Positions 5,457 through 24,100 of a stretch of DNA of 64,000 bases are shown here, piece by piece (positions within the stretch are counted from its first letter, which is position 1; each line of letters begins with the position of its first letter). The DNA comes from Candidatus Poribacteria bacterium. Its GTDB lineage: Bacteria; Poribacteria; WGA-4E; PCPOR2b. The notes beneath the pieces are model-generated. The model was not told the DNA's origin, ran no database searches, and saw only the letters and a program-made list of their open reading frames with translations. The DNA is taken from assembly GCA_965215015.1 (NCBI GenBank), contig OZ244042.1, positions 2,176,001-2,240,000 on the forward strand. The letters run 5' to 3'. Made by a program: the position numbers and the translations under genes.

Positions 5457-6209
5457 ATGAAAACTGAGACCTTCACCCGTTTTGCCTCCAAGTCCGAAAA
5501 TTACGCAAAGCACCGTCCTGATTACGCCCCCGAAGCAATTCAAGCAATAATTGAACATACAAAGCTAATACCGGCATCCGTGATTGCAGACATCGGTGCA
5601 GGAACAGGCATTGTGGCCCGGCATTTCGTCGAAAGTGGTAACTCCGTCTACGCTGTTGAACCGAATCCAGAAATGCGGCAGAGGGCAGAGATTGAACTTG
5701 GAAAGCGTCCAAATTTTCATAGCGTAAATGGGAATTCGGAGGGGACGACGCTGCAGGAGGCAAGCATTGACTTGATTACAGTCGGGCAAGCAATCCGGTG
5801 GTTTGATCCAGAGCCAAGCAAGCAGGAGTTTCTACGAATCCTGAAACCCAATGGCTGGTTTTCCATTCTCCAGCATTCACGGTGTCGTGATAACCTGACT
5901 CAAGCAATCAGCCAAGTATGTAGTGCCCAAAATGGATGGCAACGTTCCAATGCTCCTAAAGGTCCTCTTTATGAATGGTGGTTTGGTGAAGACGGTCGGT
6001 TCCTATATCTTCAATTTCCGAACCCACGCACTTTTGATCTAGAGAATTTGATCGGATTGGAATTATCCAACTCACATGCACCTGACGAAAGCCACCCTGC
6101 CCATCCTGCTTTTGTTGATGCCTTGCATAGCGTGTTTGAGAGTTTTCAGGATGGGGGCACGATTACAATGAACTTCACGACCCATCTCTATGTAGGGTTG
6201 ATAAGCTGA
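5457..6209 (+). CDS. Class I SAM-dependent methyltransferase
   Basis: YAKHRPDY, IADIGAGTG, VEPN and DLITVGQA motifs. Confidence 0.9.
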   Translation: MKTETFTRFASKSENYAKHRPDYAPEAIQAIIEHTKLIPASVIADIGAGTGIVARHFVESGNSVYAVEPNPEMRQRAEIELGKRPNFHSVNGNSEGTTLQEASIDLITVGQAIRWFDPEPSKQEFLRILKPNGWFSILQHSRCRDNLTQAISQVCSAQNGWQRSNAPKGPLYEWWFGEDGRFLYLQFPNPRTFDLENLIGLELSNSHAPDESHPAHPAFVDALHSVFESFQDGGTITMNFTTHLYVGLIS

Positions 6210-6305
6210 AGCTAGAGATTCAGATGCAATCGCTCTTGTTTTGACGGTCATTTGACTCAAACCTATACTAAATCCAAATGCTACAGAGATTGCTTCGTAG
6301 TCCAA

Positions 6306-7208
6306 TCACCCGTAGATCACGCGTAGAAGATTGAAGCCGATTACCCCCGCCACAATCAAAACGATGAACGCAAAGCAGAAGCGGACTGAATCCCCCTGTA
6401 TTCTTTGATTAACGATTGCTCCAATTTGTGCACAGATTGTGGACCCGACCAGCAAAAACACAACCAGCCATAAATTGACATTGCCCCGCATTGCATGGAT
6501 AGCAGTCCCATAAACAGCAGAAAAAAATACGATGAGCGAAACCGTGCCAACTGCTGTGTGCGTTTCAACGCCATATCCGTAGATTAGCAGCGGCACGAAG
6601 AGGACGCCGCCGCCAATCCCAAGCAACCCTGTGAAAACACCGATGACGAGTGCTGAGTAAACAACGGCCGGGAGCGAAATTTGGGGCACTCCGCTGTTGG
6701 GAAGGGAAACATAAGGTGGGATACGGAGGCCTTGAAGTAAGCCGTGCGGTTGCCTGTGATCGTTTTTCCTTCTGCGAATCAGTGATTCTATGAGAATCAA
6801 TCCTGAAACGGTGATAAGCACTCCGAAGAAGAGCCATTGTAGGTAAAATTGAAGTGCTGGAATTGATTGCTTGCTCACATTGATTGGTCCCAACCTATCC
6901 AGCCAGTCGAGCAGATATACTCCAAGCTCGATGCCGACAAAATTACCCCCCACAATCATCAATGCCAGTTTTGCATCAATGTCACCGAACTTCCAATACC
7001 GCAATACCGTAGAGAAAGTGGTGCCGGCCGTCCGAGAAAGCGTGCTCCCGATGCAGATTGGGAAGGGGATGCCAAATAAGATATTAAGGACCGGGGTGAT
7101 TAGCGGACCGCCGCCGATTCCAAAGAAACCTGACAAGAAACCGCTGATACACCCTAAACTAATCAACCCCAAGATATTAACAGGTATGCCACTGATATCG
7201 ACGTTCAT
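6306..7208 (-). CDS. Sulfite exporter TauE/SafE family membrane protein
   Basis: Duplicated GFLSGFFGIGGG / GVFTGLLGIGGG motifs; multi-pass hydrophobic protein. Confidence 0.9.
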   Translation of the reverse strand: MNVDISGIPVNILGLISLGCISGFLSGFFGIGGGPLITPVLNILFGIPFPICIGSTLSRTAGTTFSTVLRYWKFGDIDAKLALMIVGGNFVGIELGVYLLDWLDRLGPINVSKQSIPALQFYLQWLFFGVLITVSGLILIESLIRRRKNDHRQPHGLLQGLRIPPYVSLPNSGVPQISLPAVVYSALVIGVFTGLLGIGGGVLFVPLLIYGYGVETHTAVGTVSLIVFFSAVYGTAIHAMRGNVNLWLVVFLLVGSTICAQIGAIVNQRIQGDSVRFCFAFIVLIVAGVIGFNLLRVIYG

Positions 7209-9796: not shown

Positions 9797-9886
9797 AAGG
9801 TCGTAACTCAACTATCGCTCTACGAAGCATACCACTATTCCGCGGTCCACCTTAGAAGCAGGTAAGGAAAGTTAGAGGAAGCTTTT

Positions 9887-10594
9887 ATGGGCAGATATGC
9901 CTACTATTACAATCTTGCTAAAACTCATCTGGATCAAGGAGATTCTGGTCGTGCCCTCATAAACTTTACCTTAGCACAGCGACAGAATCCCAATCGTGTC
10001 GAGGCCTATTACGCTCGTGCTACGGTTCACCAGCTGAGAGGCAATCATGATCGCGCCAATGCAGATTTGACCACGGCACAGAACCTCACGAGAATTTCCT
10101 TTGCTGAGTTTGATTTAACGAAGGCCAACGAATTTGTAGAGAGCGATGCCGGATTAAGCCTTATAGAAAACCAGGACGCGAACCCTAGTGATATTCTTAT
10201 AAGGAAACTCGGCGAGATTGCCTTTGCTAAATTTCTATATGAGCATGATAAGGCATTCTTGAATGATGCCAATCAACTTCTAACATGGGATGATGTTTAT
10301 ACATCGGACAGACTGAATCTCCAGACTTGCGACGGCCAAACTGTTGATGTTAAGGCATCCAAATTCCAAAGCATAGTGGTTCCATATAATAATAAACCAA
10401 GGGATTATTACGTCGGAGTTGGAATTTCAACGGATAAGACAATAGGTACAGTGGAGGGTTTTATTCATAGAGATGGACTAAAGCCCTCTGAGTCTAACAT
10501 TCCCGATCCATGTCTTCAAAGAAAATTTGAATCACTTAAATGTATCGAAGACTTGCTTGAAATGATGCCTGAGGCAGAAAACGGTGCGAGCTAG
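9887..10594 (+). CDS. TPR repeat + PD-(D/E)XK-like domain protein; C-terminal domain paralogous to the RpoB extension
   Basis: N-terminal ~65 aa form two TPR-like repeats (AYYYNLA...NP..VEAYYARA). C-terminal [11 protein letters not shown]...[10 protein letters not shown]...DYYVGV. Confidence 0.75.
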   Translation: MGRYAYYYNLAKTHLDQGDSGRALINFTLAQRQNPNRVEAYYARATVHQLRGNHDRANADLTTAQNLTRISFAEFDLTKANEFVESDAGLSLIENQDANPSDILIRKLGEIAFAKFLYEHDKAFLNDANQLLTWDDVYTSDRLNLQTCDGQTVDVKASKFQSIVVPYNNKPRDYYVGVGISTDKTIGTVEGFIHRDGLKPSESNIPDPCLQRKFESLKCIEDLLEMMPEAENGAS

Positions 10595-10675
10595 GTCCCA
10601 CGGGAGAATAATAAACAAATGTGCCCCCTATCCCCAATACCTGCCCTTGTGATGGTGGGTATGCACCCCATTAGA
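10078..10675 (+). repeat. Copy A of a ~600-bp direct repeat (copy B at 20427-21033)
   Basis: Manual alignment from ACAG(A/G)ACC(T/C)CACGAGAATTTCC to GCACCCCATTAGA; includes ~80 bp after the stop codon. Confidence 0.97.
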
Positions 10676-10736
10676 AACGGATAAGATCTCTCTCGTTCTT
10701 ACCGAAAAAACTTTAGGTCTGTTCACGCATTACCTA

Positions 10737-13700
10737 TCACGTTCGGATCTCACTCCCAAACCTTGCCGAAACAACCTTTGACACGCCCGCCTGCTCCATC
10801 GTCACACCGTACATGACATCGGCAGTTTCCATCGTCCGTTTATTGTGGGTAATAATAATAAACTGTGTCTGCTGGGCGTATTTCCGAATGAGGTTGGTGA
10901 AGCGGAGCACGTTCGCTTCGTCAAGCGCAGCATCAACTTCATCTAGAACACAGAAGGGGCTCGGCTTAATCTTAAACACGGCGAAGAGCAGGGCAATGGC
11001 GACAAGGGACCGCTCACCGCCGGAGAGTTGCGTGATACTCTGTGGCCGCTTCCCCGGCGGACAGGCGATGATATCAATTCCCGATTCTAACACGTCAGAT
11101 GCTTCTGTCAAACGTAACTCCGTTTCCCCACCCCCAAAAAGTTCCTCAAAGACCTCTTGAAAGTTGGCGCGTATCTGCTCAAACGCACCGAGGAACGCTT
11201 CACGTGAGGTCTGGTTAATCTTTTGAATGGCTTGGTTGACCGATTCGAGCGACTTCTCGAGGTCTTGGCGCTGGGTGACGAGGAAATCTTCACGCTGCTT
11301 GTGCTCCTTATACTCCTCAATCGCCACAAGATTAACAGAGCCCATCCCTTCAATCTCGGCTTTCAGCGTATCAATCTGTCCCATCAACTCCAGGTCGTCA
11401 ACCGGATTATCCTCGACTTCAATCTGATCAATTGTGATTTGGTACTTATCGAGGATTCGGGCGGAGATTGCCTTCAATTGCATCTGCAACTGGGTCGTCG
11501 TGACCTCTAGGTGATGCCGTAGGCGATTATGCTTATCAAATTCCCTTCTGGCTTTGCGCATCAGCTTCTGCGCTTCTGCAATCTGTTTGATTAAACCTGT
11601 ATGCTCCTCCTCTAGCTGTCTCACATTTTCCGCCGCCTCAAATTTTTCCTGCTCTATCTGGAGAAATTTGCGTTGCGCTGCGTCAATTTGTGAAGAGAGC
11701 TCTTGGCGGGTTTGGTCATCTGAATCGATAACCCCCTGATGCTCGGCGATACTGTCGTGAATCTGTGCCTGATTTTTTTGAAGATTTAGGAGCTCAGAGC
11801 TCAAGCTCTGCAATTTTTCCCGTTTCCCTGCTAAAGCAATTTCAAGTTCTTGGCAGGAACCGATGACTTCATCCCGTTTATTCTTTTCGCTCTGAATCTG
11901 CTCCGACAACCGCTTGATGCGTCGTGCTAATGTGCGGCGCGCCTTGGCTGCGTCCTCCAATTCAGACTGCAGGGCGTCCTGATCGGCTTTTGCTTTTTCC
12001 GTTTCCTGATGCAGACCTACCTCTTCCTTTTCTACATCATTCAATTGTTCTTCAAGTTGGCTAATTTGCCGTTGTCCCTGTTCCAAAACTTTTGACAAAC
12101 TCGCATGCTCAATTCGGTGCGTTTGCTCCTGTGTAATGAGGGTTTGCCGGGTCTGTTGGAGTTCCACCAACTTGCCAGCAAGTTTTTTGCTTCTGCCATC
12201 CTTTGCATTGAGCTGGCTTGTCAGTTGGTTAATGCGTTCCTGTAGATCTTCTAGCTCCCTTGAGCGGCTCAGGAGTCCACTAGTTGAACCAGTGTTATGC
12301 CCACCCGTAACTGCGCCAGAAGTATTGATTAATTCTCCCTCCAGTGTGACGAGGCGCGCACGGTGACGGAAACGCCGTGTCAGGTTTATTGCTGTGTCAA
12401 GGTCTTCGACTACAACTGTATTTCCTAGCAGTTGCTGAACTGCAACCTCATATTTTGAGTCGTAGTCTAGGAGTTCAGCTGCCAGACCGATTACACCAAC
12501 CTCCTCTAGCAGACCATCGCCGTGGAACGAGCGAGTCCGCAGAATATCCAAGGGCAAGAAGGTCACTCGACCGGCTTTCGTCCGTTTGAGAAACTCAATA
12601 CCGGACTGAGCGTCTTCAGCGGTTTCTGTAACGATGTTTTGAATAGCACTCCCCAATGCTACCTCGATGGCTAACTCGTAGTCTGATTCGGTTCGGATGA
12701 GCTCGGCGATGACGCCACAAATCCCGCCAAAGCGTTCTGGCTCTATTTCGCGGACTTTAAGAATCGCGCGTACACCTGTGTAGTAACCTTCATGGACGGC
12801 TTGCAAATCCCGTAATGACTTAAACCGTGAAACGCTGGTACCGAGTGAATCCTGCATCCCACGCAGTTCGGATTCTAGCTTGCGGAGCTCCGCTTGGTGG
12901 CGTTGGATTTTTTCTTCAGCTTTCTGCCGGGCCATCTCAAGGCGAAGCAGGTCGGCGTTAAGCTGCTGTTCACGTTGGTGTGCCTTTGTATAATCCGATT
13001 TTTCTGCTTCTAGTTCAGTGTCTAAAGCGTTTGAGCGTTCCGTAATTCGATCCAGATTAGCAGCTGAATACTCCAGTTTGTTGTTAAGGGACGCAAGCTG
13101 CGTTTCCAGTTGTGAGACTTGATGGGTCGTTTCAAGCAATTTTTCCTGTGTTGTTTCTACGGAACCTTCGGCTTCCGTCACCCGCCTATTGAGTTCGGTC
13201 AAAACTCGCCGCCGCGCGGTCAGTCGGCTTTCCTCTAACTGAAGTGAAACGTCAACCTGTCTGTGTTCTTGCTCGCGGTCCTCCTTTTGCTCTTTAAGTT
13301 CTGATGACTGTCTCTCCAATGATTCGATTGCCTGAAGTGCCCGTTGGCGCTGCTGCTGAATATTTAGCTGACGTTCCTTGTAAAGTGCAATTTGCCGTTC
13401 CGTTTGTTCAATCTCACTCGCAAATTGGCTCACAACCCCTTGCCCATTACGAATTAAGTTATCTAACTCGGAGCGGCGGGCTGTCGCATCCTCAATCTGC
13501 TGCTCTGTGGAATCGATCTGCTCATTGGCTGCTGTCACCGCAAGCATCAATTCATCTAAGCTGAGTTGGGTTTGAGTCAATTCCTTGGCAAACCGCCCAT
13601 GCTCCCGACGGTTGAGGTCCAGTTCAAGGTTTTTCAGTTGACCGTGGAGTTGTTGATAACGTTCGGCTTGTTCGGCTTGCCGCCTGAGCGATTCAGTTTC

Positions 13701-14432: not shown

Positions 14433-15569
14433 TTAATCCTTGGAAAAGCTCTGATTCAAGGCATCTTTAATCTCTGTAATGACTTCTGTATCCGCTTCCA
14501 TGTCTAAACGTGCTTGTAACGCTTTTCTTGCAGCCTTACCCCCAATTTGCCCTAATGCCCATGCAGCATGGCCGCGGACCAAGGGCTCGCGATCGTTCAA
14601 CGCTTTTTTGAGGGCAGGCACCGCAGCTCGATTTTTCCAATTGCCAAGCGCAACTGCAACATTTCGGAGAAAACCCCGTCGCTTCGCTCGCTTGACTGGA
14701 CTGTTTCTAAAACGTCTGCTAAACTGTTCCTGCGTCATGTTAATCAATGAAAGCAGCGTAGGCGTGAAATTTCCCTGGCGTGGATAAAAGGCACGCTCTT
14801 TTGTCGGCACAGCTTTGCTGTTCCAAGGGCAAACTTCCTGACAGATGTCGCAACCGAAGATTAGGTTGTCCATCTGCGGACGGAGCCCTCGGGGGATGCT
14901 CCCCTTCAATTCAATGGTAAGGTAGGAAATACATAGCCGGGAATCGAGGATGTTCGGTGCTAGGATTGCGTCTGTAGGACATGCCTCAATACAGCGGGTG
15001 CACGTGCCGCAACTGCCACGAAGCAGCGGTGTGTCTGTGTCCAACTTGATACTGACCAAGATACCCGCGAGAAAAAACCAAGAACCGGCTCGCCAGTTAA
15101 TCACATTTGTATTTTTAGCAATCCATCCGATGCCCGCGCGTTCCGCGTACTCACGTTCAAGGACCGGGGCGGTATCTACATAAACTCTGGTTTTGACCTT
15201 TTCTTCAGCGGTTCTTTGGATAAATATCGCCAACCGATCTAATTTCGATCGGATAAGACTGTGGTAATCCGTTCCCCACGCATACCGAGAAATCTGTCCG
15301 CGCGATGGATCCGCCACAAGTGACTTAGGGGGGGCGAGCGTGTAGTAATTAATCGCCAACGCGATAATTGATTGGGCTTCGGGGAGGATTTGGCGTGGAT
15401 CCCGCTTCAGCGGTAGATGCCTTTCTAGGTAACCCATCTCTCCGGCATAACCGTCTTTCAACCACTGTTCGTAGCGATCAATCGTCTGGCTTGGTTCAAC
15501 TGGGATAATACCAGCCAATTCAAATCCAAGTTTTTGTGCCTGAACCTTTATCTGTTCTGTCAGATTCAT
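14433..15569 (-). CDS. queG: tRNA epoxyqueuosine(34) reductase QueG with C-terminal HEAT repeats
   Basis: SRYAWGTDYH, VDTAPVLER, CGTCTRCIEACPT and GCDICQEVCPWN motifs. Confidence 0.96.
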   Translation of the reverse strand: MNLTEQIKVQAQKLGFELAGIIPVEPSQTIDRYEQWLKDGYAGEMGYLERHLPLKRDPRQILPEAQSIIALAINYYTLAPPKSLVADPSRGQISRYAWGTDYHSLIRSKLDRLAIFIQRTAEEKVKTRVYVDTAPVLEREYAERAGIGWIAKNTNVINWRAGSWFFLAGILVSIKLDTDTPLLRGSCGTCTRCIEACPTDAILAPNILDSRLCISYLTIELKGSIPRGLRPQMDNLIFGCDICQEVCPWNSKAVPTKERAFYPRQGNFTPTLLSLINMTQEQFSRRFRNSPVKRAKRRGFLRNVAVALGNWKNRAAVPALKKALNDREPLVRGHAAWALGQIGGKAARKALQARLDMEADTEVITEIKDALNQSFSKD

Positions 15570-15831: not shown

Positions 15832-18800
15832 ATGCCCCATCCCGTCAAATATGGCAAGCGTGAAAGATTATCTTTTGCAAAAATTCCGGAGATTATGAAT
15901 CTCCCCGATCTCATCGAGGTTCAAAAATCCTCCTACGACGAATTTCTTCAACAAAATATCCCCCCAGAAAAGCGTAAAGATAAAGGCTTACAAGCCGTTT
16001 TCAACGAAATCTTTCCAATCCCCGATTTCAGCGAAACTTCCGAACTTCAGTTCGTTAGTTATTCACTCGGTGCCCCTAAGTACGACATTAACGAATGCCA
16101 ATCCCGTGGGTTCAATTATGCCCTGCCGGTGAAGGTTCGTGTCCAATTGGTTCTCAGAGAAAAAGATCAGGACACCGGTGAAAATCAGCTGATTGATATC
16201 AAGGAAAATGAAGTCTATATGGGCGAAATCCCCTTGATGACGGAAAACGGTACTTTCATCATCAACGGCTCTGAACGGGTGATTGTCAGCCAGCTACAAC
16301 GATCTCCCGGTGCAACGTTTGGGGAAGATACCCACACCAGTGGACAGACACTCAACACTGCGAAGATTATTCCGTATCGAGGGGCGTGGATTGAATTTGA
16401 GTGCGACATCAAAGATCTGATTTATGTCCGGCTCGATCGACGAAAAAAAATGCTCGTAACTGTTCTGCTCCGGGCACTGGGTTGGGAAACCGATGAAACC
16501 ATCCTCCATCTGTATGCCAAGACAGAGTGTGTTCAGCTCGATGATTCCCTGATTGGTCGGGTGACGGCTGCTCCTGTTGAATATTCTGTCCCTGAAGATA
16601 TCTTGCTTGAAGCAAATACAAACACAGAGCGTGTCAATCTAGCTGACGCTCCAATTGGTCGGTTGATAGCTACTCCTGTCGAATACAAGCACCCTGATAC
16701 TGGAAAAGAGGTCTTGCTTGAAGCAAATACGAAATTGACAGCAGAGCAGATTTCGGATTTGCTTCAAGCAGATATCAGCGAAGTTGTAGTTGAAGCAAAT
16801 ACAAACACAGAGCGTGTCAATCTAGCTGACGCTCCAATTGGTCGGTTGATAGCTACTCCTGTCGAATACAAACATCCTGATACTGGAAAAGAGGTCTTGC
16901 TTGAAGCAAATACGAAATTGACAGCAGAGCAGATTTCGGATTTGCTTCAAGCAGATATCAGCGAAGTTGAAGTTATTCCTGTCGAATACAAATTACTCGA
17001 AGCAAATGTGGAGTTGACAGAAGAGGCAATAGACGATTTGCTTGAGGCAGGTATCAGCGAAGTTGAAGTTTTAGACGCAGATGATGCAGAAGAAATCCGT
17101 TTTCTGCGAAATACGCTCAATCGTGATCTCCAATCGGAGTATAAACTGCCGTTAATTTTTAAAGTGCCATCAGACCTCCAAAGTGATTTGACAGATAATG
17201 CACCGGTGTCAGAGACATGGCGTCAACAGTTTAAAGACAGTGGCACCTCTCTGTCCTCTACCGCGATCATGCAGGTAAAAACAGCAGATCGCCGTTGGCG
17301 TGTATTAAACAAGAATAATAGAGAGAACTTTACCATTGAGAAAATAGGGGATACCCTCAACGTCTATCGGGGAAGTATCCAAGACTTGGCGGTGGTTGAA
17401 ATCTTTCGTAAGCTGCAACCGGGCGACCCGCCTACAATCGAGAGCGCGCACAACCGATTTGAAAAGCTATTTTTCGATTCAGTGCGCTACGATCTCGCAA
17501 AGGTAGGGCGGTATAAGCTTAATGAAAAGCTTGGCAACCTTTCCCTGTATCGGAACGAGGACGAAGTAGTAGATGAAACGATTCGTGTCCTGCGTGCGGC
17601 GGACATCGCCGCGGTTCTCCAATACCTGATACAGGTGCAGAATGGAAACGGAGAGATGGACGATATCGATCACCTCGGTAATCGTCGAGTTCGCGCTGTC
17701 GGAGAACTGTTGCAGAACCAGGTGCGGATGGGGATGCTGCGAGTTACCCGGGCGACGCGAGAGCGGTTGACAGTTCAAGACTTGGAAAGTGTAACCCCTG
17801 CCGACTTGATTAATCCTAAACCCTTGACCGCTGCGATCAAAGATTTCTTCGGATCGAGTCAACTTTCCCAATTCATGCAGCAAGCCAATCCGCTAGACGA
17901 GTTAACCCATAAACGCCGCTTGAGTGCATTGGGCCCCGGCGGACTGCATCGGGAACGTGCAACCTTTGAGGTACGGGATGTCCATCGTACTCACTACGGA
18001 CGAGTCTGCCCGATTGAGACACCTGAAGGCCCTTCGGTGGGGTTAATTGTTTCCTTAAGTACCTACGCGCGGGTCAATGCCTACGGCTTTATGGAAACAC
18101 CTTATCGCAAGGTGTCTGAGGGCAAAGCAATCAATCGGATCGATTATTTGTCCGCCGATAAAGAAGATACGTTCACCATTGCACAGGCACATGCTGTCCT
18201 CGATGAGGACGGAACGATGGAAGGCGACCTGATGGTTACACGGCAAAAGGACGATTTTCCCCGGAAGTTAGCACCAGAAATCGATTACATTGATGTCTCC
18301 CCGAAACAAATCGTTGGTGTTTCTGCCGCGCTCATTCCCTTCCTTGAGCATAACGATGCGAACCGTGCATTGATGGGGAGTAACATGCAGAGACAAGCTG
18401 TACCGCTCATCCGGCCAGAAGCTCCGTTGATTGGGACTGGTATGGAACATAAAGCTGCTCGCGATTCTGGGGCAGTTGTACTGGCAAAGCGGGATGGCAT
18501 TGCAGAAAGCGTCTCTGCATCTGAAATCATTATCCGCACGGATGATGCCTTCCGGATTGCTCATGGAGAGCAGTCGTTCAGCGAAATGGGCTACGATGTT
18601 TATCGCTTGACCACCTTCAAGCGATCCAACAGTGGGACCAGCCTCCACCAACGCCCATGTATAAATGTCGGAGAACAGATAAAAGCCGGTCAAGTGATTG
18701 CCGATGGCACCTCAACAGAGAATGGAGAGCTGGCCCTCGGCAGCAATATCCTAATCGCATTCATGTCTTGGGAAGGATATAATTATGAGGATGCTATCCT

Positions 18801-20952
18801 CCTCAACGAGTCACTCATCGCTGACGATACTTACACCTCTATTCACATCGAAGAGTTTGAGGTAGAAGCGCGTGATACGAAGATGGGATCCGAAGAGATT
18901 ACTCGAGATATTCCAAACGTTTCTGAGGAAGCTTTGGCGCAGTTAGATGAGGAGGGGATTATTCGCATCGGTTCAATTGTCCGTCCGGGAAGCATTCTTG
19001 TGGGCAAGGTGACCCCGAAGGGAGAGAGTGACCTCGGCCCCGAAGAAAAACTGCTGCGTGCAATCTTTGGTGAGAAAGTCGGCGAAGTGCGCGACGCTTC
19101 CAAGTATGTCAAGCCCGGCACCGAGGGGGTTGTTGTTGATGTCAAGGTCTTCTCTCGGAAAGAGCGGGACGGGGACCGTCAAACGGAATTACGGGAGATC
19201 GCGAAAAAGAAAGAGGTGGAGAAGGAATGGGAGGCGAAATGTGGATTAATTAACCAACGCAAGGACGACGAGATCCGCAACATACTGCTCGGTCAAAAAC
19301 TCGCTAGCAGTGTTTCTAACGACACAGAACTCATTGCTAGGCGGGGAAAGATTGTAACAGAAGAGTTGCTGGAAACGGGCGTTCCGTTGGAACAATTTCA
19401 TGTTAGGGATGCTGAGGCAATGGAGCTCATCCAACGCATTCAACAGTTGGCGCAGGGGCGTATTGATGCCCTGACGGAAGAAAAGAAAGCACAAATTGAG
19501 AAAATCGAGAAGGGCGACGAGTTGAAGCCGGGGCTTCTCAAACTGGTGAAAGTTTATGTAGCGATCCGTCGAAAGATCTCTGTCGGCGATAAAATGTCCG
19601 GGAGACACGGCAATAAGGGAGTCGTTTCAAAGATTCTCCCACAAGAGGATATGCCCTATCTGGAAGACGGTACGCCAATCCAAATCATCATGAATCCGTT
19701 GGGGGTTCCGGGGCGCATGAATGCGGGACAGATTCTGGAAACGCATTTGGGGAGGGCGGCAAAGGAACTTGGATTATATATTACCACGCCGGTCTTTGAT
19801 GGGGCGGAGGACCCGGAAATTCGTAAGCTCTTACGAGAGGCAGGGCTGCCCGAACACGGAAAAGCGAAGTTGTATGATGGTCGAACCGGGGAACCCTTTG
19901 CCCAAGAAGTGACTGTCGGATATACTTACATTCTCAAGCTCAATCACTTGGTAGATAATAAAATCCACGCCCGCAGCACAGGACCCTATTCGTTGGTGAC
20001 TCAGCAACCGCTCGGTGGCAAGGCACAGCAAGGTGGCCAACGTCTCGGTGAAATGGAGGTGTGGGCATTGGAAGCATATGGGGCTGCCTACACCCTTCAA
20101 GAATTACTCACAATTAAATCCGATGATGTCATTGGAAGGAGCAAAATCTACGAAGCGATTGTCAAAGGAGAAAATGCCCCCGCGCCCGGCACTCCAGAGT
20201 CATTTAACGTTCTCGTGAAGGAATTACAAAGCCTTTGTCTAGATGTAGACCTAGAACAGACATCTGATGCCCCAGATACTTTTGATGCCCCAGATACTTT
20301 TGATCTTACGCCTGAGAAACAGAACCTGCAGACATCTAATGCCCCAGATACTTTTGACCTTGCCCCTGAGAAACAGAACCTGCAGACATCTGATGCCCCA
20401 GATACTTTTGATCTTGCCCCTGAGAAACAGGACCCCACGAGAATTTCCTTTACTGAGATTGATTTAAAGAAGGCCAACGAATTTGCAGAGAGCGATGCCA
20501 GATCAAACCTTATAGAAAACGAGAACGCGAACCGTGAGTATATTCGTATAGGGAAACTCGGTGAGATTGCCTTTGCTAAATTTCTAGATAAGCATGATAA
20601 GGCATTCTTGAATGACGCCAATCAACTTCTAACATGGGATGATGTTTATACATTGGACAGACTGAATCTCCAGACTTGCGACGGTCAAACCGTTGATGTT
20701 AAGGCATCCACATACCAAAGCATATTGGTTCCATGTAATAATGAATCCAAAGATTATTACGTCGGGGTTAAAATTTCACTGGATAGGAATAGGAAAATAG
20801 GTACAGTGAAGGGTTTTATTGATAGAGATGGACTAAAGCCATTTACTCACCCTGACATTGATAAGCCATGTCTTCAAGGAGAATTTGGATCACTTGAATG
20901 TATCGAAGCCTTGCTTGAAATGATGCCTGAGGCAGAAAACGGCGCGAACTAG
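15832..20952 (+). CDS. rpoB: RNA polymerase beta subunit with internal insertions and a 231-aa C-terminal extension
   Basis: [55 protein letters not shown] and [13 protein letters not shown] motifs. 1706 aa, far longer than a typical RpoB. Confidence 0.98.
16607..16972 (+). repeat. 183-bp in-frame tandem duplication inside rpoB
   Basis: Copies 16607-16789 and 16790-16972 differ at about 3 positions. The unit encodes [59 protein letters not shown]. Confidence 0.97.
20257..20436 (+). repeat. 54-bp x3 tandem repeat linker (plus an 18-bp sub-duplication) after the canonical RpoB end
   Basis: Unit CAGACATCTGATGCCCCAGATACTTTTGATCTTGCCCCTGAGAAACAGAACCTG encodes [18 protein letters not shown]. Confidence 0.97.
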
Positions 20953-21033
20953 GGCCCACGAGAAAATAATAAACAAATATGCCCCCTATCCCCAATACTT
21001 GCCCTTGTGATGGTGGGTATGCACCCCATTAGA
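20427..21033 (+). repeat. Copy B of the ~600-bp direct repeat, forming the RpoB C-terminal domain and 3' flank
   Basis: Aligns to 10078-10675 and is 9 nt (3 codons) longer. Confidence 0.97.
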
Positions 21034-21144
21034 TTGGGAGTCGGAACATGATGTATGAAGTGTGGAAGAGGAGAAGTCCGAAAAAATAGAAGTGCTTCTC
21101 TTCTAATCTTCTAATCTTCTAATCGTTAATAAGGGAGAATAGCC

Positions 21145-24100
21145 ATGTCAAATCAGATCCAAGAACGAACAACACAGGCGGGAAATCTGAACAATTTTGA
21201 TGCGATTTCAATCCGAATCGCTTCGCCAGAATACATTAAGGAATGGGCAAAAAATACAGCATGTCACCAGCGGACTAGTGGATGCACGACCAGTAACTGT
21301 GCATGTGGCGAAGTCCGGAAACCTGAAACAATTAACTATCGCACATTTCGGCCCGAACGAGATGGCTTGTTCTGTGAGGCGATTTTTGGGCCACAAAAGG
21401 ACTGGGAATGTGGATGCGGTAAGTACAAACGAATTAAACACAAAGGGGTAATCTGTGATCGATGCGGTGTTGAAGTGACTCAGCAGAGGGTGCGCCGTGA
21501 ACGGATGGGGTATATCGAATTGGCAGCACCGGTATCGCATATCTGGTTTTTCAAAGGATTGCCTTCCCGGATTGGATTGTTTTTAGATCTCCCATTTCGT
21601 GATATTGAGCGGGTTATCTATTTTGAGTCGTTCATCGTATTAGAAGTCAGCGATCCAGACTGTGACCTTGGGGAAAAACAGCTCCTCACAGAGCGGGAGT
21701 ACACGCAATATCGAACTAAATTTCCCGATGGCTTCCGTGCCGACATGGGTGCCGATGCGATCCAAGAACTGTTGGAGCGAATTGATTTAGATCAGGAGAT
21801 CGCAACCCTGCGCGCCGAACTTGAGGGGACCAAGAGCGAGCAAAAAAAACGGAAGCTGCGCAAGCGGTTGGAATTGGTGAGGGGCTTCAAACAGTCAGGC
21901 AATCTGCCGCACTGGATGATTCTTACCGTGATTCCGGTAATTCCACCCGACCTACGTCCGCTCGTAGCTCTCGACGGAGGACGGTTTGCCACTAGCGATT
22001 TGAATGATCTGTACCGGCGGGTGATTAATCGGAATAACCGGCTAAAACGTCTCATGGAACTCCGGGCACCAGAAGTGATTATCCGCAATGAGAAACGAAT
22101 GCTCCAAGAAGCAGTTGATGCGCTACTCGACAATGGCCGTCATGGTCGCATGGTAAAAGGCCCGGGCAATCGTGGCCTGAAATCCCTTTCCGATATGCTC
22201 AAGGGGAAACCGGGACGTTTTCGTCAAAACTTGCTCGGCAAGCGCGTGGATTATTCGGGACGGACGGTCATTGTGGTTGGACCAGAACTCCAGTTGCACC
22301 AGTGTGGCTTGCCAAAGAAGATGGCCTTGGAGTTGTTTAAGCCGTTTATCATTCATAAGCTGCAAGCAAAAGGCTATGCCCACACTATCAAACGGGCGAA
22401 AAATATGGCAGAGCAGATCTCGCCAGAGGTGTGGGAGGTGTTGGAAGAGGTCATTGACGAGCATCCCGTGCTCCTGAACCGGGCGCCAACGCTACACCGA
22501 CTTGGGATTCAAGCGTTCCAACCCGTGCTTGTCGAAGGAAAAGCAATTCGAGTCAACCCACTCGTGTGTGAAGCATTCAATGCGGATTTTGATGGAGATC
22601 AGATGGCAGTGCATGTCCCATTAAGTGTTGAGGCACAGGTTGAAGCAAAACTACTGATGATGGCAACGCGAAATCTTCTCAAGCCGGCACATGGTGGAGC
22701 CATTGCGGTGCCGAACCGAGATGTTGCAATGGGGTGCGGCTTCCTCACAAAAGCTGTTCCAGAAAAGGAATGGGAGAGAGTATGCCAAGTGTCAACCCCG
22801 CGAATCTATCGAGATCCGGAAGAGATTATTCTCGCACACGATTGCGATGCCCTTGGACTACATGATCCGGTAAAACTCTACCTCGATGGGGCTACGCAGC
22901 CAATCGAAACAACCGTGGGACGAGTCATCTTTAACCAGGTTGTTCCTAATGAGTTGTTGTTCACAGATGTCAAGACGCAACAAACGCTGCCATTTGCCAA
23001 CCAAGAGATGGGTTCGCGCGATCTCTCAAATTTAGTGTCTCGTGCTTTTGAGGAGTTGGGAAATCGCCAAACTGTGGGGTTTATAGATGACTTGAAGCGG
23101 CTGGGTTTTCATTACGCAACCCTTGCCGGACTCTCTATTGCTATGCAGGATATGATCATCCCACACCAAAAGGGGGAGTTGATAAGGGAAGCACGGAAGC
23201 AGGTCGAACAGATCGAAGAGGACTTCCAAAGAGGCGACATGGACATGAGTGAGGGTGAACGCTACAACAAAGTGATTGATGTTTGGCATCAACTGATCGA
23301 ACAAATCGAAACCGCCTTGTTTGATGGGTTGGAACAGGGACGGGAGGATGAGGTTGAAGGATTTAATCCTGTTCATATCATGGTGGACTCAGGCGCGATT
23401 TCTCGAAGCAAGCGGGATTCAATTCGCCAACTGGCAGGCTTGCGCGGATTGATGGCAAAGCCTTCCGGAGAGATTATCGAACAACCAATTGAGTCTTGCT
23501 TCCACGAAGGGTTGTCGGTGCTTGAATACTTCATCTCGACCCACGGGGCGCGGAAGGGACTTGCCGACACCGCGATTAAGACTGCTAGTAGTGGTTACCT
23601 GACGCGGAAGTTGGTTGATGTTGCACAAGACGTAATGATAACAACCGTGGACTGCGAAACGCTTGGCGGTGTTACTAAAACGACGGATGAAGAAGAGGAG
23701 AGTCCGTTCTCAGAACGGATTTTCGGGCGCACAGCAGCCGACGACATCGTCGACTTGAGCACAAATGAGGTGCTAGTGCCAAAGGACGAGTTGATTACCC
23801 AACACGCAGCAAAGAAAATTGAGGCAGTTGGTATCCCTGAAGTCCGCGTCCGATCTGTTTTGACCTGCGAAGCCCCCAAAGGCGCGTGCGCCAAATGTTA
23901 CGGCACCGATTTGACAAGCGGCCATTTGGTCGATGTCGGGGAGGCAATCGGTATTATTGCAGCACAATCAATTGGGGAGCCGGGGACCCAGTTAACTATG
24001 CGAACGTTCCACACAGGTGGCACCGTCAGTGGTGGTGGGTCCCAATCAAGGATTGAAGCTCGGCATGATGGGAAGGTTCAATATCACAATGTCAGGTTTA

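Follow-up and report, generated by a model that had tools for sequence, protein, structure and literature searches.

A copied nuclease-like domain joined in frame to the C-terminus of RpoB in an uncultivated Poribacteria species

Results and discussion

A nuclease-like domain at the end of RpoB

We analyzed a stretch of 64,000 nucleotides (nt), called the window below, from an uncultivated, sponge-associated Candidatus Poribacteria species (GenBank assembly GCA_965215015.1, contig OZ244042.1, positions 2,176,001 to 2,240,000 of the forward strand). In this window, the sole ordinary rpoB gene of the genome, encoding the beta subunit of RNA polymerase (RNAP), carries an in-frame copy of a nuclease-like domain at its 3' end. 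The fusion is real and is a young capture of a domain copy by rpoB. The genome is a single 5.94-Mb contig assembled from metagenomic data, and it holds one canonical rpoB copy, the only other match being a divergent beta/beta'-like protein of 1039 amino acids (aa).

Pfam recognized in the fused protein the full ordered Rpb2 set of a bacterial RpoB (Rpb2_1, _2, _3, _45, _6 at 2.6e-131, and _7), with Rpb2_7 ending at aa 1475. Beyond this point the open frame runs for 231 aa more (20257-20949). As a previous reading of the letters alone (the sequence-only reading) had stated, no stop follows ...LDVDLE before the TAG at 20950-20952. The motifs quoted in that reading, DYYVGV included, are all present in the translation, and the repeat linker that it described is made of 18-bp units (2.2 copies) and 54-bp units (2.8 copies). 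Together, 20257-20426 and 20427-20436 encode 60 aa rich in Asp, Pro, and Thr, a linker that should be flexible judging from its composition. No domain was matched in the RpoB tail by a Pfam scan at E values up to 1. The tail is nevertheless not a chance open frame, because a 75% identical paralogue (E 3.1e-75) is encoded in the same genome and 35 representative relatives were found among 1.84 billion proteins. The features of the region are as follows.

15832..20952, + strand: fused rpoB open reading frame (ORF), 1706 aa, no internal stop
15832..20256, + strand: canonical beta core to ...LDVDLE, aa 1-1475, with Pfam Rpb2 domains 1, 2, 3, 45, 6, and 7
20257..20426, + strand: native acidic C-terminal tail, expanded by tandem duplication, as read from the repeats and the comparison with congeners
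20265..20304, + strand: 18-bp tandem repeat, 2.2 copies, 100% matches
20285..20434, + strand: 54-bp tandem repeat, 2.8 copies, 93% matches, with the left junction inside the unit
20427..21033, + strand: inserted segment, copy of window 10078-10675, 88% nucleotide identity over 608 aligned columns
20437..20949, + strand: 171-aa domain resembling the N-terminal part of DUF1822 and YraN (E43, N77, D87-V-K89, Y108)
20950..20952, + strand: TAG stop that came with the copied segment and aligns to the stop of the paralogue
20953..21033, + strand: copied 3' flank of the donor-like gene, 76/81 nt identical, two copies in the genome
21032..21058, + strand: relic of the native rpoB end, (GA)T TGG GAG TCG GAA CAT GAT GTA TGA = (D)WESEHDV*, untranslated and out of frame
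9887..10594, + strand: standalone paralogue of 235 aa, N-terminal tetratricopeptide repeat (TPR) part plus the same domain, 75% aa identity
21145..25389, + strand: 1414-aa ORF in the rpoC position, taken from the ORF list and identified by position

Origin of the insert

The domain of the paralogue lies at 10088-10588, about 10 kb upstream of the fused copy. The DNA match between the two loci continues through the stop codon and 81 nt past it. Homology to the rpoB of congeners reaches to about 20285, recurs twice within the repeats as copies of a native tail segment, and resumes at 21032/21033. The insertion point is located between '...CCT GAG (A/G)A' and 'T TGG GAG', i.e., between '...FDLAPE' and 'DWESEH..*'. 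At the left junction, the donor frame is that of rpoB. The junctions show 1-2 nt of microhomology and no target-site duplication, the last 2 nt of the insert being the microhomology with the native tail. The copied unit begins within the donor ORF, leaving behind the TPR part, the start codon, and the promoter, and the genome contains two copies of the domain unit only. No intron was matched in Rfam, no intein or transposase was matched by Pfam in the tail, and no terminal repeats were detected. Since the 54-bp unit holds native tail together with the first donor codons (QNL), the tandem duplications occurred after the insertion; their endpoints are two 'ACAGA' microhomologies. Between 20200 and 21300, no terminator-like site was found on the + strand and promoter-like sites were not in excess, and the copied 3' flank folded no better than its shuffles (z 0.73).

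The donor-like gene, too, is specific to this genome. It occupies the interval between the EF-G and smc genes, which is about 930 bp long here versus about 50-330 bp in 14 of the 18 congeners. Among the others, one (G018) has a different gene there and three were unresolved. The interval, at 9797-10737 of the window, looks like a variable insertion spot. In G018, where it measures 911 bp, it holds an ORF resembling, as judged by eye, a cation-efflux membrane protein.

Presence of the fusion in independent data

The junctions were looked for in contigs from four of 14 listed sequencing runs, which belong to three studies. Contigs of runs X2 and X3 (study P1) span 19900-20646, a contig of X5 (study P2) spans 20177-20653, and a contig of X6 (study P3) spans 20376-20526, each of them with 0 differences. 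The left junction at 20427 is bridged in all four runs, and the join on which the sequence-only reading depended is confirmed by contigs of three studies. At the right junction (21033), record 20 of X5 (20745-21049) reaches 17 letters past and record 8 of X2 (21004-21300) starts 29 letters before, both under our rule of 31 letters. The paralogue was assembled as its own contig, which shows 18 differences and two gaps and has its loose ends exactly at 20427 and 21033. No contig joint in the four runs indicates an uninserted allele. The best-covering run may be the source sample of the assembly, while X5 and X6 come from other studies.

RpoB C-termini across the genus

We took rpoB 3' ends from 19 other species of the genus. 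A canonical match was obtained in 18 of them, the remaining one (G017) giving a divergent paralogue only. In all 18 congeners, RpoB stops 41-45 aa past PESFNVL in an acidic tail that ends with ...APEDWESEHEI* or a near variant. The sequence-only reading had RpoB normally ending right after ...LDV. This does not hold in the genus, where about 26 aa more follow in 18/18 congeners, and the first part of the apparent extension is therefore native tail. None of the 18 congeners has an extra domain on RpoB, and the fusion is seen in one of 19 genus genomes with a canonical rpoB end. Searching 41 genomes for the domain gave two positives, this genome (G000) and G014, which encodes it far from rpoB in a separate frame of 190 aa. 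RpoB-sized proteins with the tail were found neither among the 35 representatives, nor among longer homologues, nor by a search with region 1476-1706 (938-2986 aa); this negative is weak, as our own fused protein is also absent from these searches, perhaps due to the display of one representative per cluster.

The acidic RpoB tail is a short motif conserved throughout the genus, and its last eight residues are removed by the fusion. The RpoB open frames of the genus measure 1379-1797 aa with C-terminal tails constant at 41-45 aa. Because the tails stay at this length, the variation in RpoB length is internal, as module copy number.

Family and fold class of the domain

Among the 35 representative relatives, 11 were found at E <= 1e-10, and a profile search gave 182 clusters. 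Members are nearly all standalone proteins of about 170-260 aa, without functional annotation. The closest orthologues that combine TPR and domain include P0085 and P0087, which share 81-87% identity with the paralogue. DUF1822 of Pfam is matched by 17 of 30 members (best E 3e-08) at profile positions of about 18-158 of 370. In the relative P0006, the match (33.5 bits) covers the N-terminal 140 positions only. The window copy has no match to DUF1822 (PF08852) at E values up to 10, and the paralogue reaches 12.5 bits for a cut-off of 25.

An alignment of 89 sequences shows G39, K40, E43, T80, D87, K89, K105, D106, Y108, V109, G110, and G126 as near-invariant. The motif positions are held by E43 in 85/89, D77 in 75/89, D87 in 83/89, and K89 in 84/89. 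At position 77, Asn is found in 12/89 sequences, which form the Poribacteria clade and include both window copies. Proteins of the PD-(D/E)XK superfamily share an alpha-beta-beta-beta-alpha-beta core and cleave phosphodiester bonds in a metal-dependent manner, with an acidic residue in helix 1, an Asp in strand 2, and (D/E)xK in strand 3. On motif order, the family arrangement helix-Glu ... Asp ... Asp-x-Lys is the restriction-endonuclease-fold pattern. The window copy itself has E43 and D87-V-K89 and carries N77 instead of the Asp.

We then aligned the family profile by hhalign with 27 UPF0102/YraN sequences from related genomes and obtained a probability of 67.5% (score 37.4). The register superposes GKLGE on GKIGE, position 77 on the Asp of GEIDL, and DVK on EVK. 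Among 80 column shuffles used as controls, the highest score was 21.4 (mean 13.4, sd 2.3); reversing the alignment gave 16.6. UPF0102 (PF02021) is a family that we take to belong to the PD-(D/E)XK clan. The Pfam UPF0102 model (PF02021) does not match the domain. The PD-(D/E)XK pattern proposed by the sequence-only reading is plausible in view of the conserved family motifs and the UPF0102 register; the Asp motif is absent from the window copy, and there were no matches to Mrr_cat or PDDEXK_3. That reading had also flagged the Asn in place of the first Asp as a possible sign of inactivity. The caveat was right, and the change is clade-wide rather than a decay of this copy. Altogether, a restriction-endonuclease-like (PD-(D/E)XK) fold is the likely assignment. 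With Asn replacing the motif-II Asp throughout the Poribacteria clade, the domain appears more likely to be a nuclease of weak or no activity, i.e., a module that binds nucleic acids or a partner, than a canonical Mg-dependent cutter.

No PADLOC defence model matched the window copy, and one of 30 members was matched at E 0.033. PHROGs gave weak matches to families of unknown function only, and NCBIfam gave none for the domain. Look-alikes in the protein atlas are mostly in phage clusters, which we take as a lead only. A scan of viral contigs found none, and phages searched by tblastn had no match to the window domain and matched the relative P0114 only at E values of 1e-3.

The genomic contexts of four members were scanned among seven loci. 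In another Poribacteria metagenome-assembled genome (L030:5054-6534), a 179-aa member (5995-6534) has its gene overlapping with that of an N6_N4 DNA methylase (PF01555, 2.8e-41) at the 3' end of the latter, an arrangement that resembles type II restriction-modification pairs. Near this pair lies a Schlafen/AlbA_2 gene. The other members are located after a 1283-aa WD40 protein (L029), beside Mrr_cat, T5orf172, and helix-turn-helix (HTH) genes (L031), and amid metabolic genes (L033). There is no consistent partner across the four contexts, a methylase adjoining the member in one of them, and no methylase adjoins either window copy.

Age of the capture and selection on the copy

Over 168 codons, the fused copy and the paralogue differ with a synonymous divergence (dS) of 0.108 and a nonsynonymous divergence (dN) of 0.135. 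Between this rpoB and that of the 18 congeners, dS is 0.58-0.96 and dN is 0.04-0.07. The capture is therefore later than the split of this species from every sampled one. The ratio dN/dS (omega) varies along the domain, from 0.60 at aa 35-100 to 1.11 at aa 100-171. In the first 35 aa, we counted 13.8 nonsynonymous versus 0.17 synonymous changes (rough binomial P about 0.05).

Amino-acid changes were polarized with 13 protein outgroups of the clade. Synonymous changes are not polarizable, because a search for closer outgroup DNA in metagenome contigs gave three distant loci only (37-42% identity). Among residues conserved at >=90% across the family, the fused copy keeps 17/17 and the paralogue 15/17. 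In neutral simulations, the probability of having no stop and no change at these 17 sites was 0.032 with 30 substitutions and 0.007 with 42, and that of having no stop was by itself 0.23-0.35. Moreover, each of the five length changes of the fused lineage is in frame: the left junction, both duplications (54 bp and 18 bp), and two indels relative to the paralogue (+6 nt and +3 nt), which occurred on the fused lineage. Our reading of these patterns is a periphery that would be free or adapting around a core that seems still constrained. The core constraint may perhaps come simply from selection against a misfolding tail on an essential and abundant protein.

Proposed explanation and its rivals

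The anatomy, the origin, the youth, and the natural occurrence of the fusion are established by the data above: a copy of roughly 600 bp of the 3' part of a gene with TPR and domain, including 81 nt past its stop, was inserted into the acidic tail of rpoB. With the left junction in frame, beta would read through an acidic, Pro-rich linker of 60 aa into the 171-aa domain and end at the donor stop. The linker consists of the native tail and the junction, and its later triplication would be due to slippage at the 'ACAGA' microhomology. The domain is predicted to be a restriction-endonuclease-fold-like module that appears folded and partly constrained. In RNAP, the beta C-terminus adjoins the beta' N-terminus, and the appendage would thus sit on a flexible tether beside the latter. 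It would be tolerated since the beta C-terminus is exposed, by analogy with natural beta-beta' fusions; that such rpoB-rpoC fusions exist is our reason for regarding this end as exposed and tolerant of extensions. Its contribution is predicted to be at most a local nucleic-acid-binding surface. We give this reading, in which the appendage is young, tolerated, and still folded and has no more than a binding role, about an even chance of being right.

Several observations weigh against it. The overall dN/dS of the fused copy versus the paralogue is 1.25, with a bootstrap 95% interval of 0.71-2.88, which is indistinguishable from neutrality. Of the residues that differ, 41 in all, the derived state is in the fused copy at 24 and in the paralogue at nine, eight being ambiguous. 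Changes in the fused copy include sites held by 13/13 outgroups (G22R, P104S, S137T, and R148G). The fused protein has also lost DWESEHEI, the terminal motif conserved in the genus. As for the fold, hhalign gave 0.3% versus Mrr_cat and 0.6% versus PDDEXK_3, in a test of low power in which YraN versus Mrr_cat reaches 41% and other known family pairs 0.1-0.8%. The close Poribacteria clade alone gave 4.8% versus YraN, and sequence searches of PDB were without significance, one profile having 0 matches at E values up to 10 and another two, at E 0.1 and 1.2.

A first rival is a neutral passenger in decay, a cheap tail on the exposed beta end that is too young to be broken, has no role, and may not fold. 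An omega of 1.25 overall and at least 1.1 outside the core, amino-acid change about 2.7-fold faster in the fused copy (24 versus 9), the loss of clade-invariant residues, the restriction of the fusion to a single species, and a neutral probability of no stop that is still 0.23-0.35 all point this way. We nonetheless consider such a passenger unlikely, given that 17/17 family-conserved residues are retained (joint neutral P 0.007-0.03), 5/5 length changes are in frame, omega is 0.60 in the core, and an identical allele occurs in samples of three studies. The domain could also be a dedicated RNAP-borne effector, a tethered active nuclease or sensor acting on nascent RNA, R-loops, or transcribed foreign DNA and selected for this role. 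E43 and D87-x-K89 are kept, the linker grew on three occasions after the fusion, and nonsynonymous changes far outnumber synonymous ones (13.8 versus 0.17) in the 35 residues adjoining the linker. In addition, the L030 member overlaps a methylase 3' end as a restriction enzyme might, and the L031 member lies in an Mrr/T5orf172/HTH island. Against this stand the Asn in place of the motif-II Asp, the PADLOC result (none, apart from one of 30 members at E 0.033), inconsistent contexts with a methylase beside one of the four scanned (seven loci), and a single-species fusion with no RpoB-sized protein with the tail found elsewhere, the latter being weak evidence. We therefore find a dedicated effector quite improbable. 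The role in defence or RNA processing suggested by the sequence-only reading is not supported by a recent copy present in one of 19 genomes with a dN/dS of about 1.25. A related and bolder possibility is a working restriction-endonuclease-fold module, selected and re-tuned, on a flexible tether beside the RNA exit and upstream DNA. Through it, transcription would be linked to the cutting or sensing of nucleic acids such as transcribed foreign DNA, R-loops, or nascent RNA. Some re-tuning after capture is suggested by the growth of the linker and by the surplus of amino-acid changes next to it, and we hold the whole proposal to be doubtful, a long shot.

The insert could also be selfish, a mobile homing-type PD-(D/E)XK endonuclease cassette copied into rpoB. 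Such a cassette would suit the donor-like gene, itself a genome-specific insertion in the EF-G/smc interval, the inclusion of the non-coding 3' flank in the copy, and the atlas look-alikes mostly in phage clusters (a lead only). It does not suit a genome with two copies only, nor a copied unit that starts inside the donor ORF without TPR part, start codon, and promoter. No target-site duplication or terminal repeat accompanies the 1-2 nt of microhomology, Rfam gave no intron, and Pfam gave no intein or transposase in the tail, so that we regard this origin as very improbable. Least credible is an artefact of assembly or sequencing, i.e., a chimeric join or a missed stop. The junction does lie within a tandem repeat, in a metagenome-assembled single contig. 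This reading is already largely refuted. The core of rpoB is joined to the repeats and the domain, with 0 differences, in contigs of three studies; a collapsed repeat is contradicted by the 12% of positions at which insert and paralogue differ; and rpoB sequence flanks the insert on both sides, with the native end left as a relic.

Comparison with known systems

The open-access literature searched described no RpoB-nuclease fusion, in agreement with the sequence-only reading. The closest parallel is that of the natural rpoB-rpoC (beta-beta') fusions, which a passage of PMC7483510 (citing Lane & Darst 2010; Zakharova et al. 1999) reports in Helicobacteraceae and Wolbachia. The likeness lies in a covalent extension at the beta C-terminus of the only RNAP of the cell. 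What is added in those fusions is beta' itself, which is an obligate partner, in an ancient event shared clade-wide. In the present case, a nuclease-like domain unrelated to RNAP was added on a linker of 60 aa, in one species, and rpoC is separate.

RNAP large subunits carry lineage-specific insertions, the known ones being internal and made of a few recurrent folds. Like these, the tail of the fused protein is a non-essential module added to a conserved core; unlike them, it is terminal and comes from an identifiable donor gene. The rpoB gene of the window also contains an internal tandem duplication of 183 bp (61 aa, 98% identical), at 16607-16974 in its variable N-terminal insertion.

The domain resembles UPF0102/YraN in the profile match and in the alignment of the helix GxxGE, the Asp strand, and (D/E)VK. 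It differs in having Asn at the Asp position and in being extended on both sides, by a helical region of about 35 aa at the N-terminus and by about 60 aa at the C-terminus; the YraN of this genome is encoded elsewhere. The comparison with DUF1822 is similarly mixed. DUF1822 (PF08852) is termed 'a TPR protein' in a passage of PMC8195603, which places its genes beside those of extracytoplasmic function (ECF) sigma factors. The paralogue likewise pairs the domain with TPR; it has the TPR first, in reversed order, and such proteins are half as long. With type II restriction endonucleases and their methyltransferases, finally, the family shares the L030 member that overlaps a methylase, and it departs from them in having no methylase by the window copies or in the three other contexts scanned.

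The finding is chiefly a caught-in-the-act case of module accretion on RNAP, a process itself known. The birth of an RNAP module is almost never observed, and in this gene the donor, the in-frame breakpoint, the stranded native stop, and the growth of the linker are all legible. Even if the appendage is useless, it means that the beta C-terminus in a genome of free-living size tolerates a foreign tail of 231 aa. If it is functional, it would represent a new mode of tethering a nuclease-like activity to transcription, and a working tethered module would be the first RpoB-nuclease fusion and a module acquisition by RNAP caught in the act.

Other observations

The 1039-aa protein (G000:C1:848737-851856; L123:2238-5357, - strand) contains Pfam Rpb2 domains 3 and 6 and Rpb1 domain 2. 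Directly upstream of it lies the gene of a 204-aa ECF-type sigma factor (L123:5424-6038, - strand). Its domains and this neighbour suggest a compact RNAP paralogue in which the two barrels are fused and which has a sigma factor of its own. A comparable beta/beta'-like match is present in 15 genus genomes, 14 with a frame of 1024-1067 aa and G017 with one of 610 aa. In the window, rpoB is not preceded by ribosomal protein genes; next to it upstream lies an oppositely oriented ORF of 378 aa (14433..15569). Just 5' of the ORF in the rpoC position, at 21099-21124, the 8-bp repeat TCTTCTAA occurs in 3.2 copies.

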